A stretch of DNA of 10,730 bases from a virus (lineage: Duplodnaviria; Heunggongvirae; Uroviricota; Caudoviricetes), in IMG/VR virus record IMGVR_UViG_3300032323_004296; one strand, 5' to 3'. Of this stretch, positions 2 through 10,535 are shown piece after piece (position 1 is the first letter of the stretch; each line of letters begins with the position of its first letter). Below the pieces are notes generated by a model. The model saw nothing but the letters and a program-made list of their open reading frames with translations, ran no database searches and was not told the DNA's origin. Position numbers and translations under genes: made by a program.

Positions 2-91
2 GGTGCTCAGGGAGGACAAGGTGCTCAGGGAGGACAAGGTGCTCAGGGAGGACAAGGTGCTCAGGGAGGACAAGGTGCTCAGGGAGGACAA
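2..91 (+). repeat. Perfect 18-bp tandem repeat x5 (GGTGCTCAGGGAGGACAA = GAQGGQ); may extend upstream of the window
   Basis: Copies at 2, 20, 38, 56 and 74, with a further copy at 137-154; all in the collagen frame. Confidence 0.95.
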
Positions 92-1378
92 GGTGCTCAA
101 GGAGCAACAGGAAATATAGGGGCAACAGGAACTACAGGTGCTCAGGGAGGACAAGGTGCTCAGGGTGTACAGGGTGCTCAAGGAGCTCAAGGTGTTCAAG
201 GTACGACTGGAGCTCAGGGTGCTCAGGGTGCTCAGGGTGCACAGGGTGCTCAAGGCTCCACAGGAACTACAGGTGCTCAAGGAGCTCAGGGTGCTCAGGG
301 TGCACAGGGTGCTCAAGGCTCAACAGGAACTACAGGTGCTCAAGGAGGACAAGGTTCTCAAGGTTTAATTTTAGGACCACAAGGACCACAAGGACCACAA
401 GGTGCCCAAGGGGCGAGAGGACCACAAGGAGCACAAGGTGCTCAAGGTGGACAAGGTGCTCAAGGCGGACAAGGTGCTCAAGGTGCACAAGGTTTTCAAG
501 GTGCTCAAGGTGGACAGGGAGCTGAAGGGGCCACAGGACAACAAGGTCCACAGGGTGCGCAAGGTGCTCCAGGTGTCACAGGAGCCCAAGGAGTACAAGG
601 AGCGACAGGTTTTCCTGGTGCAAATGGTCAACAGGGGCCACAAGGAGCTCAAGGGGCTCCTGGAGTTGCAGGTGCACAAGGTCCACAAGGAGCAAAAGGA
701 AATATTGGTGCAATAGGACTGAGTCCGACCGTACCAGGAAATACAGGTAATCCAGGTCCACAAGGAAATACGGGACCTCAAGGAGGGCAGGGTGCTCAAG
801 GACCACTTGGTGGACAAGGTTTTCAAGGAGCCCAAGGGGCACAGACCTTTGGTCCTCCTGGTACTCAAGGTGCTCAAGGAAATGTTGGTGACCAAGGTGT
901 TAATCGTGGTGGTCTTCCCCCAGGACCTGAAGGTGCTCAAGGTGCTACGGGTGCTCAAGGTGCTCAAGGACAAAGTGGAGGTCCAGGACCAACGGGTGTC
1001 CAAGGGGCTCAAGGTCATCCTGGTGCCACAGGTAGGACAGGTGCAATCGGACCACCATCTGACTCAAGGATGAAGAAAAACATTAAAGTAATTGAGGATG
1101 CTGTTAGTATAGTCCAAAAATTGAGAGGTGTTAGATTTAAGTGGAAGGACCCACAAAAATATCATATTCACAAGAAAGATGATGATGATATAGGTTTCAT
1201 TGCACAAGAACTTCAAGAGGTTTTACCACAGGTTGTATATGGTGACGAAAAAAATGGATATAAAGTAAAATACTCTGAGATTGTTGCAATTTGCACTGAA
1301 GCAATTAAAGAACAATATGGATTGTTGACTCAGATAGAGGATAAGTTAAAAAAGATAGAAGACAAACTTAACGGTTAG
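2..1378 (+). CDS. Collagen-like (Gly-X-Y) fibre protein with C-terminal peptidase S74 intramolecular chaperone; 5'-truncated by the window
   Basis: Hand translation from base 2 gives no stop to TAG 1376-1378: GAQGGQ...GPQGPQGPQ...GAIGPP, then S-D-S-R-M-K (1058-1075), which fits the S74 S-D-x-R-x-K autocleavage motif. It continues [23 protein letters not shown] and a C-terminal coiled coil (AIKEQ...[12 protein letters not shown]). The track ORF 1070..1378 is only its last 102 aa. Confidence 0.93.
221..346 (+). repeat. 63-bp tandem duplication within the collagen region
   Basis: 221-283 and 284-346 are identical except one synonymous change (TCC vs TCA). Confidence 0.9.
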
Positions 1379-5836: not shown

Positions 5837-6014
5837 AGACTTCTTTTTTGCAATGTTATTTTCTCTCATAATTGGGTTAACAATTGTTGGACTTACTAAC
5901 AAAGGAGAAAAAGAATTACCTACTCCTTCAACTCGGGACACTACCTCTCAAGAGTATTACAAAAAAAGTTTAGATAGTTTCTTTTTCGACCATAGTAAAA
6001 TACCTAATGAATGA
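5826..6014 (+). CDS. Small membrane-anchored hypothetical protein, 62 aa
   Basis: Basic N-terminus then a hydrophobic stretch FFFAMLFSLIIGLTIVGL; overlaps the next gene by 8 nt. Confidence 0.7.
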   Translation: MKNKDFFFAMLFSLIIGLTIVGLTNKGEKELPTPSTRDTTSQEYYKKSLDSFFFDHSKIPNE

Positions 6015-6663
6015 TGTGAAACCATACAAAGACCAAAAGTTAACATATTCATCTGATGGTAGATTGTTAGATGAATATGGTAACGCAGTTATGATGGAGT
6101 GGGAAAGACCCATAATGAAAAAGTCTGCTGAGGTAATTTGTAGAAATGGTGGTAAAGTTTTAAATGTTGGTTTCGGGATGGGAATCATTGATAGTTATAT
6201 CCAAGAACAAAATATTACTGAACATTGGATTATAGAACCACATATAGATGTGTATAGAAAAATGTTTGATGATGGATGGCATTTGAAACCTAAAGTGAAG
6301 ATATTATTTGGTGATTGGCAGTGGTATTTCAAATACCTACCCATGTTCGATGGGATATATTTTGACACTTGGGAAGACGACGGAGGTGACTTTTTGATGA
6401 AAGTTCGTAGTATTCTAAAAGAGAATGGAATCTTTTCATATTTCAATAACCCGAGAGAAGATGAAAAAGGACTCCATATGACGGACGATGATTTCGAAAT
6501 TATAACTAAGTGGGGTGAGGTTGAGTTTCAGCCTATTGATTTAGATTTTATAGATTCAACGGATAGACAAAGGACGGATGGTTTAATATATTGGTACCCT
6601 GAGTGGAAAAAATATTATTGTCCTATAATAAAGAAAAAAAACGTTCCTTATTACACATTTTAA
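6007..6663 (+). CDS. Class I SAM-dependent methyltransferase, Rmt2 / guanidinoacetate methyltransferase (GAMT) family
   Basis: VMMEWE, motif I VLNVGFGMGIID, EHWIIEPH, DGW, G-D-W-Q, FDGIYFDT and GIFSYFN match in order the motifs I recall for yeast Rmt2 and animal GAMT. Confidence 0.85.
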   Translation: MNDVKPYKDQKLTYSSDGRLLDEYGNAVMMEWERPIMKKSAEVICRNGGKVLNVGFGMGIIDSYIQEQNITEHWIIEPHIDVYRKMFDDGWHLKPKVKILFGDWQWYFKYLPMFDGIYFDTWEDDGGDFLMKVRSILKENGIFSYFNNPREDEKGLHMTDDDFEIITKWGEVEFQPIDLDFIDSTDRQRTDGLIYWYPEWKKYYCPIIKKKNVPYYTF

Positions 6664-6672
6664 AAAAATAAT

Positions 6673-7152
6673 ATGCCCAAAGGATTATTAAAATTTAGCA
6701 ACACACTCCTCACTCCACCAAAGTGGTATGTTTACACTGTTTTGTATAACGGAGCATGGTCTGAGGGAATAGAACTTCATGGTGAAGAACAAGAGATTTG
6801 TAATCAACATTTTGATTTCTTTAACAAAGATGGAATAGGAATGGAGGTTGAATACGAAGCTCACATGAATGACATCACTCAAAATTACGTCCTCACAAAT
6901 ATCAGACAATTATTACCAAAATCCTCTGAATCAGTAAACCACCCTAATCACTACGGAGGAGAAAGTAATACCTATGAGGTTATAAAGGTATGTGAGGCTT
7001 GGGATTTGGATAAAGATGCTTATTTGTTCAATGTGGTTAAATATGTTGCAAGAGCTGGTAAGAAAAATCCATCTAAAGAAATAGAGGATTTGGAAAAGGC
7101 AGTATTTTATTTAAACAGAAAAATTCAAAACCTCAAAAATGAAAAAATATAG
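6673..7152 (+). CDS. DUF3310 (T7 gp1.7 nucleotide-kinase-like) domain protein with an extra N-terminal region of about 85 aa
   Basis: C-terminal VNHPNHYGG...YEVIKV.EAW......FNVVKYVARAGKK....EDLEKA..YL is the DUF3310 signature. Confidence 0.8.
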   Translation: MPKGLLKFSNTLLTPPKWYVYTVLYNGAWSEGIELHGEEQEICNQHFDFFNKDGIGMEVEYEAHMNDITQNYVLTNIRQLLPKSSESVNHPNHYGGESNTYEVIKVCEAWDLDKDAYLFNVVKYVARAGKKNPSKEIEDLEKAVFYLNRKIQNLKNEKI

Positions 7153-7321
7153 AATATTCGATAAATTATTTATGTCCTTGGGGTTTATTTCTGCAGGAAT
7201 TAGTTCATTTATTGATTATAAAGAAGGGGAACCTTTCATTTGGCAACTATCATGCATGGTTTGGATAACAGTTGCATACATTAAACAAATGTCTATAGAA
7301 AGTATGGAGGACGAGGAATGA
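7139..7321 (+). CDS. Small two-helix membrane protein, 60 aa
   Basis: Two hydrophobic segments (LFMSLGFISAGISSFI; FIWQLSCMVWITVAYI); overlaps both neighbours, with an ATGA coupling to the kinase. Confidence 0.65.
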   Translation: MKKYRIFDKLFMSLGFISAGISSFIDYKEGEPFIWQLSCMVWITVAYIKQMSIESMEDEE

Positions 7322-7752
7322 TAATTTGGTTAACAGGACAACCAGGTAGTGGAAAATCTACAATTGCTAATGAACTTGTTTCAGATAGTACGGGTACATT
7401 CATTAACATAGATGGAGACGACCTCAGAGAAATATTTCAAAACAAAGATTATAGTGAAGTCGGTAGGAGAAAGAATATTGAACTAGCACAACATATTGCA
7501 GTGTTCCTTCATAGAAAAGGTTTTCATCCGGTAGTATCATTGGTTTCTCCTTACAAAGACCAAAGAGATAAGTTCAAAGATAAGATGGGTAAAGATATTT
7601 TGGAGGTTTACGTTCATACAACACAAATAAGAGGAAGGGAGAATTACTTTGTCAAAGAATATGAAGAACCATCGGAGAACTATTTAAGTTTATGTACGGA
7701 TGATATCACACCTGAAGAATGTGTGTCATATATATTAACTCGAATAATGTAA
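7318..7752 (+). CDS. cysC: Adenylylsulfate (APS) kinase-like P-loop kinase, compact 144-aa form
   Basis: IIWLTGQPGSGKST, IDGDDLR, GRRKNI, VSLVSPY, EVYV and YEEP are all CysC hallmarks. The lid region (CExRDPKGLY...FTGI in canonical CysC) is much shorter. Confidence 0.8.
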   Translation: MIIWLTGQPGSGKSTIANELVSDSTGTFINIDGDDLREIFQNKDYSEVGRRKNIELAQHIAVFLHRKGFHPVVSLVSPYKDQRDKFKDKMGKDILEVYVHTTQIRGRENYFVKEYEEPSENYLSLCTDDITPEECVSYILTRIM

Positions 7753-7758
7753 TAAGTG

Positions 7759-8160
7759 ATGAAAAAAATTCACGTAGAAGGTGACCCAAAACTTAAAAAC
7801 ACAGGAGGTAAACAATACTCCATGGTTGTGGGACGATTCCAACCTTTTCATGATGGTCACAAATGGTTGGTAAATCAATGTATCGAAGAAGGAAAAAACG
7901 TTTTAATTTGTATCAGGGACATCAAACCCGATGAAAAAAACCCATTCACTCCTCAAGAAGTGGAAATGAAAATTAAGCGAGACCTATGGCAACTTTTAGG
8001 TGATGAAAGGGTTAAAGTTATTATTATACCTGACATAGAATCTATTAATTTTGGAAGGGGGGTTGGATATGATATCATAGAACATATTCCACCCGACGAT
8101 ATTAGAGAGATATCAGCAACAAAAATCAGACAAGAACTTCGAGACGAAGGTTTGTTATAG
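7759..8160 (+). CDS. HxGH (cytidylyltransferase-like, NadM-related) nucleotidyltransferase, 133 aa
   Basis: GRFQPFHDGH, KNPFT, IPDIES and ISATKIR. An in-frame GTG at 7756 is an alternative start. Substrate uncertain. Confidence 0.85.
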   Translation: MKKIHVEGDPKLKNTGGKQYSMVVGRFQPFHDGHKWLVNQCIEEGKNVLICIRDIKPDEKNPFTPQEVEMKIKRDLWQLLGDERVKVIIIPDIESINFGRGVGYDIIEHIPPDDIREISATKIRQELRDEGLL

Positions 8161-8182
8161 TCAAAAAATTTTTTATATTTTG
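8151..8182 (+). promoter_or_regulatory. Candidate Bacteroidota-type promoter TTTG-N19-TATATTTT(G) before the DNA methyltransferase
   Basis: TTTG 8151-8154 and TATATTTT 8174-8181 (one mismatch to TAnnTTTG). TTTGTTTATG at 8179-8188 is identical to 5272-5281. Confidence 0.45.
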
Positions 8183-8185
8183 TTT

Positions 8186-9049
8186 ATGGAAAAATACGTT
8201 GGTAAAATACTGAATGGGGATTGTATTGAAGTTATGAAAGACATTCCTGAGAATTCTATTGATTTAATTGTTACCTCTCCACCCTATGGAGTTGGAATTG
8301 ATTACGACACACATGATGATGATGTTGATTTCGAAGAATATAAAAAGTTTTCAAAGAGTTGGTTAACAGAAGCCTACAAAGTATTAAAAAACGATGGGAG
8401 ATTAGCTCTCAATATACCCTATGAGATTAATAGACAATCGAAAGGGGGTCGAATCTTTATGGCGGCAGAACTATGGTCAGTCATGCAGAGTATCGGTTTT
8501 AAATTCTTCGGAATTGTGGACTTAGAAGAAAATTCTCCACACAGAAGCAAGACTACGGCATGGGGGTCGTGGATGTCGCCATCATCTCCTTACATTTATA
8601 ATCCTAAAGAGTGTATAATTTTGGCTTACAAGAACAATCATATTAAGAAGGTTAAGGGTGAACCACAATGGAAAGGAGAAGAAACCTTAATCGAGAACGA
8701 AGATGGTACTTCAAGAAAGAAGATGGTTTATTCTGAAGAAAATAAGAAAGAATTTATGGAGTTGGTCTTCGGTCAGTGGGACTACTTCGCAGACACAAAA
8801 TCACTCACCAAGGCAACATTCTCAATGGATATTCCAACGAAAGCAATCAAAATACTCTCATATAAAAATGATTTAATACTTGACCCGTTTGCTGGTAGTG
8901 GAACTAGTTTGGTTGCTGCGGAAATCTTAGACCGAAGGTGGGTAGGAATTGAACTGAGTGAAAACTATTGTGAAATTGCTAAGAAAAGAGTTCAAGGGTT
9001 CATCGATAAGAAAAAACAATTGGAATTGGATTTGAAAGAGGGGAATTAA
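8186..9049 (+). CDS. Orphan beta-class DNA amino-methyltransferase (N4-cytosine more likely than N6-adenine), 287 aa
   Basis: GDCIEVM, IDLIVTSPPY (motif IV) N-terminal; ILDPFAGSGTS and GIE (motif I/II) C-terminal. ATG 8186 is preferred over TTG 8180. No restriction endonuclease in the window. Confidence 0.92.
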   Translation: MEKYVGKILNGDCIEVMKDIPENSIDLIVTSPPYGVGIDYDTHDDDVDFEEYKKFSKSWLTEAYKVLKNDGRLALNIPYEINRQSKGGRIFMAAELWSVMQSIGFKFFGIVDLEENSPHRSKTTAWGSWMSPSSPYIYNPKECIILAYKNNHIKKVKGEPQWKGEETLIENEDGTSRKKMVYSEENKKEFMELVFGQWDYFADTKSLTKATFSMDIPTKAIKILSYKNDLILDPFAGSGTSLVAAEILDRRWVGIELSENYCEIAKKRVQGFIDKKKQLELDLKEGN

Positions 9050-10163: not shown

Positions 10164-10535
10164 ATGAAAGAAGAAATTATTTTAAAATTAGTACAAATCC
10201 AAAATCAATTTAGATTTTTACATTGGCAAACATATGGTGATGCAAAACATCGTGCATATGGAAAGACTTACGAAAAATTAGGTGATTTTTTAGACGAATT
10301 TGCGGAAATAACAATGGGTAAGTATGGTAGATATCAATTTGATTCTGAATTTTCAATCATGTTTCAAGACATCTCCAAGCTTACTATCCAAAATTTTTTA
10401 GATGGTATCACTGAATTTTTAGTAGGTTTAAGTGACCATTTAGATTCTCGATATGATACTGACCTACTTAACCTTAGGGATGAAATTTTGGGTATGACAA
10501 ATAAATTGAAATACTTGTTAACTCTCAAGCACTAA
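10164..10535 (+). CDS. Dps/ferritin-like four-helix protein (DUF5856-type), 123 aa
   Basis: HWQTYGDAKHRAYGKTYEKLGDFLDEFAE gives the HW...H......Y.....D...E spacing of Dps-like metal sites; C-terminal DLLNLRDEI...NKLKYLLTL. Confidence 0.75.
   Translation: MKEEIILKLVQIQNQFRFLHWQTYGDAKHRAYGKTYEKLGDFLDEFAEITMGKYGRYQFDSEFSIMFQDISKLTIQNFLDGITEFLVGLSDHLDSRYDTDLLNLRDEILGMTNKLKYLLTLKH

Follow-up and report, generated by a model that had tools for sequence, protein, structure and literature searches.

The virus record IMGVR_UViG_3300032323_004296 of IMG/VR (Duplodnaviria; Heunggongvirae; Uroviricota; Caudoviricetes) comprises 10,730 nucleotides, referred to here as the window. It derives from a large tailed phage and encodes a collagen-like fibre protein and DNA methyltransferases besides many ORFans. 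Two genes on the same strand, separated by 6 nt, encode an adenosine 5'-phosphosulfate (APS) kinase with a shortened lid and a small nucleotidyltransferase (NT) with an HxGH motif. Together they probably constitute a minimal synthase of 3'-phosphoadenosine 5'-phosphosulfate (PAPS), leading from sulfate via APS to PAPS with the NT as the predicted sulfurylase.

7318-7752, plus strand: short-lid APS kinase (CysC family), 144 amino acids (aa), PF01583
7759-8160, plus strand: HxGH nucleotidyltransferase (NT), 133 aa, PF01467; predicted sulfate adenylyltransferase

The coordinates of these open reading frames (ORFs) agree with an earlier, sequence-only reading of the window, which had described a 144-aa CysC-like kinase 6 nt upstream of a 133-aa HxGH enzyme. 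An alternative GTG start of the NT at position 7756 yields a protein of 134 aa.

The kinase matches the Pfam family APS_kinase (PF01583) with 64.5 bits at a cut-off of 21.1. The solved APS kinases 7yq0, 8a8h, and 2yvu align with its stretch 2-102 and, in a second block, with the YEEP segment. Its AlphaFold model shows a mean predicted local distance difference test score (pLDDT) of 93.3, and the top 50 neighbours of this model in the PDB are all APS kinases (TMq of 0.77-0.88). In an alignment of short-lid and canonical APS kinases (A4), the Walker A phosphate-binding loop (P-loop) is present (GQPGSGKS, residues 7-14, with G7, G12, and K13 invariant), and D32 and D34 of the DGD motif, R37, R50, P78, R83, R105, Y115, and P118 are likewise invariant. 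N53 is nearly invariant, and the motifs S77-P78 and Y115-E-x-P118 are also kept. With the canonical APS kinases of the CysC type (1m7g, 5cb8, and 7yq1), the enzyme thus shares the fold, the P-loop, and the DGD..R, SP, and YE.P motifs, as well as two arginines and an asparagine at positions that contact APS. DGD..R, R50, and N53 align with their canonical counterparts, and Y45 takes the position of a canonical phenylalanine; following the structures from P. chrysogenum and Arabidopsis, we assign the contacts with the phosphosulfate to the downstream Arg and Asn, and a place under the adenine to the aromatic residue. The difference is found in the lid, which had been called shortened from the letters and in the alignment lacks 4 + 14 = 18 residues compared with canonical forms. 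The kinase thus has no full mobile lid (K-G-L-Y ... F-T-G-I-D), and just R105-G-R-E-N-Y-F is left before Y115-E-E-P. Since many genomes of Marinimicrobia and marine archaea have the short form as their sole APS kinase, the kinase of the window is probably not a dead copy. The 144-aa protein belongs to the APS kinase family, and its sequence predicts the conversion of APS to PAPS.

The NT carries the motifs GRFQPFHDGH (residues 25-34), ICIRD (50-54), NPFT (61-64), IPDIES (90-95), and SATKIR (119-124), all at the places noted earlier. Within Pfam it matches the generic CTP_transf_like family PF01467 alone, with 30.2 bits. Models of the NadM-type nicotinamide mononucleotide adenylyltransferases (NMNATs) match its N-terminal two thirds with scores far under their cut-offs (37.5 bits for TIGR01527, with a cut-off of 181.2). 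In a phmmer alignment with the archaeal NMNAT 1ej2, residues 21-95 of the NT correspond to 6-83 and residues 111-131 to 122-143, so that residues 95-111 stand opposite 83-122. About 23 residues following DIEC83 of 1ej2 are absent from the NT, and its stretch 95-111 contains no Trp, which bears out the observation that the Trp-containing segment after IPDIES is lacking. From work on 1ej2 and 1hyb, this segment presumably carries the nicotinamide-contacting residues Asn84 and Trp87. The structural model of the NT (pLDDT of 90.6) is nearest to the solved folds of the NadM NMNATs (TMq up to 0.66), followed by the phosphopantetheine adenylyltransferases (PPATs), with a TMq of ∼0.48 over ∼77 columns. 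The top 50 PDB fold neighbours do not include the known ATP sulfurylase Sat.

A pattern scan for the NT family used a narrower alignment (A2), the first alignment (A1) being too diverse for that purpose. Within the family, at least 90% conservation is found for G25, R26, Q28, H31, G33, H34, R53, D54, and P62 in the N-terminal part and for D92, G99, R100, V102, G103, Y104, S119, T121, and R124 in the C-terminal part. The family thereby keeps the positions of active transferases (H31, G33, H34, S119, T121, and R124) and shows two motifs of its own, R53-D54 and G99-R100-x-V102-G103-Y104 (GR.VGY). Most members have a length of 112-135 aa, some up to ∼178 aa. In databases, the family is named cytidyltransferase-like or putative NMNAT, and its fusions with the kinase are named adenylyl-sulfate kinase. 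A structure prediction of the complex of kinase and NT gave a score of 0.00, which weighs neither for nor against binding.

The link between the two families is documented by fusions in both orders, which argue for a functional connection instead of a chance neighbourhood. The first half of PHROG 10255 matches the kinase and the second half the NT; in cultured phages, kinase-NT fusions are represented by gp32 of Xylella phage Salvo and gp227 of Stenotrophomonas phage DLP_6. Large protein collections contain many kinase-NT fusions (250-355 aa) and many NT-kinase fusions (284-319 aa):

kinase-NT fusions: P0190, P0283, P0268, P0216, P0313, P0133
NT-kinase fusions: P0183, P0199, P0212, P0232, P0234, P0264, P0269, P0271

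The fused APS_kinase domains reach the whole Pfam profile, with scores of up to 231 bits in the kinase-NT order and up to 202 bits, at full length, in the NT-kinase order. Some further NT fusions involve a DHHA1 domain (P0304), DUF6717 (P0210), and a DUF59/SUF-type iron-sulfur assembly domain (P0121). DHHA1 denotes a phosphoesterase family that includes phosphatases of 3'-phosphoadenosine 5'-phosphate (pAp), and in L141 the NT is followed, at a distance of 1.6 kb, by a 471-aa DHH-like gene. Forms of ∼320 aa among metagenome proteins (P0131, P0138, P0146, and P0150) were considered as a third functional fusion and rejected, as their N-terminal part resembles an HNH homing endonuclease by eye. 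Three viral loci with a gap of 220-760 nt between kinase and NT suggest insertions of homing endonucleases between the two genes.

Where the genes are separate, they are neighbours. The kinase gene lies directly upstream of the NT in 77 of 80 viral loci. For cellular loci, one genome per prokaryotic species was scanned, giving 108 stretches, of which 80 loci were kept; an APS kinase gene directly precedes or overlaps the NT in ∼70 of them. These loci belong to Marinimicrobia, Flavobacteriales, Chitinophagaceae, and marine group II/III archaea, and the partner is a short kinase, a canonical kinase of 200 aa, or, in Chitinophagaceae, a DUF2061-APS-kinase fusion. Within a limited seed set, a sulfotransferase, CysQ, CysH, or sulfite reductase is encoded at most 10 kb from the NT in 48 of the 80 cellular loci. 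The association of the pair with sulfotransferases, which the sequence-only reading had named as a point to examine together with co-occurrence and fusion, holds in cells and viruses alike and extends to CysQ, DUF2061, and sir-cysH. Three loci (L050, L051, and L070) show the order APS kinase, NT, CysQ, and three or four sulfotransferases. In Flavobacteriales, the pair is followed by an uncharacterised gene, a CysQ-type phosphatase, a membrane protein, and three Sulfotransfer_1 genes, and in most Marinimicrobia loci a Sulfotransfer_5 gene is found within a few kb. One row (L030) reads sulfotransferase, kinase, NT, and DUF2061. Among viral contigs, an NT-kinase fusion is followed by a Sulfotransfer_1 gene in L011, and a sulfotransferase-DUF2061 fusion stands 2 nt ahead of an NT-kinase fusion in L012-L014. 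All four Nitrospiraceae loci (L046 and L047-L049) show the order sulfite reductase, CysH, NT and no kinase; here, the NT occupies the slot of the sulfate adenylyltransferase in assimilatory reduction through APS. DUF2061 has also been described in rhizobia, where it belongs to a nod locus that includes nodH and nodPQ (bioRxiv 10.1101/2022.04.26.489235).

The distribution of the NT is complementary to that of the known sulfurylases Sat and CysD. Among 50 NT-positive genomes, 49 encode an APS kinase, 5 encode Sat, and 3 encode CysD, and 42 are without both Sat and CysD. Two members of this set without a known sulfurylase, G002 (4.7 Mb) and G166 (∼1.0 Mb), are metagenome-assembled genome (MAG) records whose titles denote single chromosomes. 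The control consisted of 151 genomes sampled evenly from the Chitinophagaceae, the family of G002. Only the seed genome G002 was found to contain the NT, so the profile test turned to NT-positive genomes. An APS kinase is present in 54 of the 151 control genomes, and 52 of the 53 that lack the NT encode CysD or Sat: CysD occurs in 41, and Sat adjoins the kinase in 11 of the remaining 12. No hidden NT was detected in these 12 CysD-less, kinase-positive genomes. In contrast, none of 12 NT-positive Chitinophagaceae and Saprospiraceae genomes encodes Sat and only 2 encode CysD (Fisher p of 4e-9), a value inflated by the relatedness of the genomes. This distribution is the classic pattern of non-orthologous displacement. 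Genomes with the NT thus have an APS kinase and mostly no Sat or CysD, and NT-negative relatives with such a kinase nearly always have one of the two, which supports the two-gene PAPS route put forward by the sequence-only reading. Its remark that the window itself carries no Sat, CysD, or CysN gene stands for the ten largest ORFs scanned, a set that left out a 344-aa ORF on the minus strand.

In the proposed mechanism, the NT would transfer AMP from ATP onto sulfate to give APS and pyrophosphate, a chemistry of the Sat type on a smaller scaffold. This scaffold would descend from the NadM/NMNAT branch with loss of the nicotinamide-riboside pocket, and ATP would be held through HxGH and ISAT.IR as in related enzymes. 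Without the nicotinamide pocket, the α-phosphate may become accessible to a small anion. Arg53 of ICIRD and Arg100 of GR.VGY, each at least 90% conserved, are candidate residues for holding the sulfate. The short-lid kinase would then phosphorylate the 3'-OH of APS to PAPS and pull the first step forward. APS formation is strongly unfavourable, and APS must therefore be drained, either by the adjacent kinase or, in Nitrospiraceae, by CysH. This requirement would account for the near-obligate coupling of the two functions, seen in the 6-nt gap of the window and in overlaps and fusions elsewhere. The function of the NT is predicted from fusions, neighbourhood, and complementary distribution, and from these we infer sulfate as the acceptor.

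Compared with systems of Sat and APS kinase, either separate or fused as in Aquifex (2gks) and the animal PAPS synthase, the proposed pathway and chemistry are the same. Both NT and Sat belong to the HxGH superfamily; in Sat, sulfate attacks the α-phosphate of ATP and APS kinase traps the APS, as is predicted for the NT. Occurrence as adjacent genes and as fusions is a further shared feature. The catalytic unit of Sat, in contrast, measures ∼380-400 aa and comes with a PUA-like N-terminal domain, whereas the NT is far smaller, has no extra domain, and forms a lineage apart from Sat that is nearest to NadM. With the NadM NMNATs (1ej2, 1f9a, and 2qjo), which are its best match, the NT shares the motifs GR.QP.H.GH and IS.T.IR and the Rossmann-like core, but it differs in the post-DIE deletion, in the new motifs RD (53-54) and GR.VGY (99-104), in its linkage to APS kinase and sulfur genes instead of NAD genes, and in being accessory instead of universal. 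The combination of CysDN and CysC occupies the same position in the pathway, and NT and CysDN are mutually exclusive in most genomes. The fold of CysDN is unrelated to that of the NT, CysD being an ATP pyrophosphatase of the PAPS_reduct family and CysN a GTPase; GTP hydrolysis drives the CysDN reaction, whereas the NT has no GTPase partner. The NT family appears likely to be a third class of ATP sulfurylase beside Sat and CysDN, derived from an NMNAT-like ancestor that lost its nicotinamide pocket and supplying APS in many marine Marinimicrobia, Bacteroidota, marine group II/III archaea, some Nitrospiraceae, and hundreds of phages, including 320-kb jumbo phages with candidate sulfotransferases.

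PAPS formed in an infected cell could be used by enzymes of the phage or of the host; the sequence-only reading had conjectured that it feeds the sulfation of virion glycans, proteins, or DNA. Complete genomes of relatives in the lineage (G204 and G206) are jumbo phages of 317-321 kb that carry both kinase and NT. They contain several ORFs of 194-239 aa with invariant sulfotransferase-like cofactor motifs, two of which (205 and 194 aa) stand in tandem and one near a DUF2061 gene; their Pfam support is borderline, with 22.9 bits at best. In the fragment G208, the gene block that contains the pair also includes two sulfotransferase-like ORFs. Neither Sat (PF01747) nor PAPS_reduct (PF01507) was matched in G204, G206, and the nearest relatives G001 and G202. 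The best matches of the phage proteins (up to 64% similarity) lie on Marinimicrobia and Marinoscillum genome contigs, which makes a host enzyme a possible consumer of PAPS. The pair probably tops up the host PAPS pool for sulfotransferases of host or phage during infection.

Several observations weigh against the assignment as a sulfurylase and PAPS synthase. The Sat profile PF01747 scores the NT with only 13.9 bits at a cut-off of 24.3, covering residues 28-86, and hhalign of the NT family with nine canonical Sat sequences gives a probability of 8%, covering the HxGH helix to β3. The Sat motifs QxRN (QxRNPxHxxH) and GRDHAG are absent from the NT, which has GRFQPFHDGH and FGRGVGY instead. With the match confined to the region from HxGH to β3, the NT is not a Sat by descent; the N-terminal PUA-like domain is missing as well, and H..H is the sole shared Sat signature. 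A homology between the GR.VGY loop and GRDHAG was considered and dropped, as hhalign gave no usable alignment there. In canonical APS kinases, the lid segment absent here carries a Phe that stacks on the adenine of APS, so the specificity of the window kinase could differ. Regarding distribution, many NT-positive genomes are incomplete MAGs or single-amplified genomes. The Fisher p-values overstate the significance because related genomes are not independent samples. Moreover, 8 of the 50 NT-positive genomes also encode Sat or CysD, among them all three Nitrospiraceae searched, and the NT is therefore not always the sole possible source of APS. Those three (G007, G008, and G181) contain a 580-aa Sat-APS-kinase fusion elsewhere in the genome in addition to the sir-cysH-NT operon, and they would perhaps hold two sulfate-activating systems for different fates of APS. 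Finally, searches of the ∼110 kb known from G001 and G202 found no sulfotransferase (PF00685, PF13469, or the phage sulfotransferase-like family A5), no DUF2061, and no CysQ-like or CysH gene; as these records are ∼37% complete, the negative searches are no proof of absence.

Four other explanations were weighed. The NT might adenylate another anion or phospho-metabolite, such as selenate, thiosulfate, phosphonate, or a sugar phosphate, with the kinase making a PAPS analogue. HxGH enzymes accept many acceptors, the lid of the window kinase is altered, its score misses the NCBIfam equivalog cut-off for APS kinase (67.7 versus 138.7 bits), and the sulfotransferase-like neighbours in Chitinophagaceae and jumbo phages are divergent, at or below Pfam cut-offs. 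This explanation is nevertheless unlikely, since many fusions and operons combine the NT with a canonical APS kinase of full length, accompanied by canonical Sulfotransfer_1 or Sulfotransfer_5 enzymes, CysQ, or CysH with sulfite reductase, and since it is Sat and CysD specifically that are anti-correlated with the NT.

It is less probable still that the NT is an accessory or regulatory partner of the kinase, binding nucleotides or acting on APS, PAPS, or pAp, with APS coming from the host or from some other enzyme. The joint presence of NT and Sat or CysD in Nitrospiraceae and a few other genomes is consistent with such a role, and the NT-DHHA1 fusion P0304 would fit a turnover of pAp or nucleotides. 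However, the catalytic HxGH signatures H31, H34, S119, T121, and R124 belong to the positions with at least 90% conservation, and in 42 of the 50 genomes the APS kinase would have no APS to act on. The NT of Nitrospiraceae, without a kinase and beside CysH and sulfite reductase, makes sense only as the APS-forming step.

A role in NAD salvage, with the NT as a small NMNAT, perhaps against NAD-depleting defence, and the kinase acting on nicotinamide riboside or an unrelated substrate, is very improbable. It draws on the sequence and fold matches to NadM-type NMNATs, on the name putative NMNAT of the Atlas clusters, and on a Nudix gene ∼4 kb downstream in the same genome, but it conflicts with the deletion of the ∼23 post-DIE residues presumed to contact nicotinamide, with the wide distance to the NCBIfam NMNAT cut-off, with a partner that is an APS kinase and not a nicotinamide riboside kinase by both sequence and fold, and with the association with sulfur instead of NAD genes. 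The lack of the post-DIE segment, together with the occurrence of the NT in 1 of 151 genomes of one bacterial family, shows that it is not a housekeeping NMNAT. Equally remote is a coenzyme A (CoA)-type pair, in which a PPAT-like NT would make dephospho-CoA from 4'-phosphopantetheine and the kinase would act like CoaE: PPATs are the second-best structural neighbours and the 3'-OH of an adenosine is the target of APS kinase and of dephospho-CoA kinase alike, but the CoaD model TIGR01510 gives 16 bits at a cut-off of 103.3, the kinase is no CoaE (PF01121, E = 0.018), and sulfur-pathway genes are strongly represented in the neighbourhood while CoA-pathway genes are missing. None of the four explains the anti-correlation with Sat and CysD, and some of the evidence speaks against each of them.

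Apart from the putative PAPS synthase genes, the window contains the following features:

2-1378, plus strand: collagen-like G-x-x repeat protein (GAQ/GGQ units), probably a tail fibre
6007-6663, plus strand: 218-aa protein with the S-adenosylmethionine-binding-like motif VLNVGFGMG
6673-7152, plus strand: DUF3310 protein, flanking the pair
7139-7321, plus strand: hydrophobic 60-aa ORF; its stop overlaps the kinase start (ATGA)
8180-9049, plus strand: N6/N4 DNA methyltransferase (124 bits), flanking the pair
10164-10535, plus strand: DUF5856 protein, flanking the pair

This gene order recurs on metagenome contigs of 81-111 kb; a megablast of the window against the phage collection gave no match. 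According to the gene tables of sister contigs, the last ∼100 residues of the collagen-like protein form a Peptidase_S74 (intramolecular chaperone) domain, and the product of 6007-6663 is guanidinoacetate N-methyltransferase-like (PF27704), for which the Pfam scan of the window found no match. The latter gene is a conserved neighbour immediately ahead of the kinase block, with a version of 325 aa in L141. The hydrophobic ORF is given 49 or 60 aa by different gene callers on sister contigs; an identity as DUF2061 was ruled out by Pfam and by eye, and it matches no family. In the same genome (L004), genes for Cob_adeno_trans, DUF192, Nudix, and a Dam-type methylase follow ∼3-6 kb further downstream.

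Additional genes were observed near the pair in other genomes. A marine group III archaeon (L059:6954-11615) shows the co-directional row ahcY, metK, short APS kinase, NT, and glyA, and metK also lies near the pair in the Marinimicrobia locus L021, a possible link to the methyl/sulfur cycle. Two Chitinophagaceae genomes show weak N-terminal PAPS_reduct-like matches of ∼21 bits (G002:C1:936105-936332 and G006:C4:249509-249733) in ORFs of 447-468 aa, 5-12 kb from the DUF2061-APS-kinase/NT operon. In Xylella phage Salvo (L001), an annotated cysteine dioxygenase at 1384-2079 stands ∼3.5 kb upstream of the fused kinase-NT gene, and the 41-kb virus-like contig L012 carries a Cas12f1-like TnpB gene at 16674-17732 on the minus strand.

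To our knowledge, only two types of enzyme have so far been credited with sulfate activation. A literature search, with subscription literature outside its reach, found nothing relevant on a phage PAPS route or a new type of sulfurylase. The pathway and the chemistry are already known; what is new is the lineage of the enzyme, together with its size and distribution. The fused forms in cultured phages, Salvo gp32 and DLP_6 gp227, make the sulfurylase claim directly testable, and, if it is true, the two proteins would offer a very small enzyme pair for the enzymatic production of PAPS. A third sulfurylase type of 112-135 residues would alter the interpretation of sulfur metabolism from genome sequences and would explain the "orphan" APS kinases of genomes annotated without sulfate activation. 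Many abundant lineages of the sea (SAR406, marine group II/III archaea, and Flavobacteriales) and the Chitinophagaceae, so far read as unable to activate sulfate, would shift to PAPS- or APS-capable organisms, with effects on views of sulfated polysaccharides and lipids and of oceanic sulfur assimilation. Phages, jumbo phages included, would carry a self-sufficient PAPS module.

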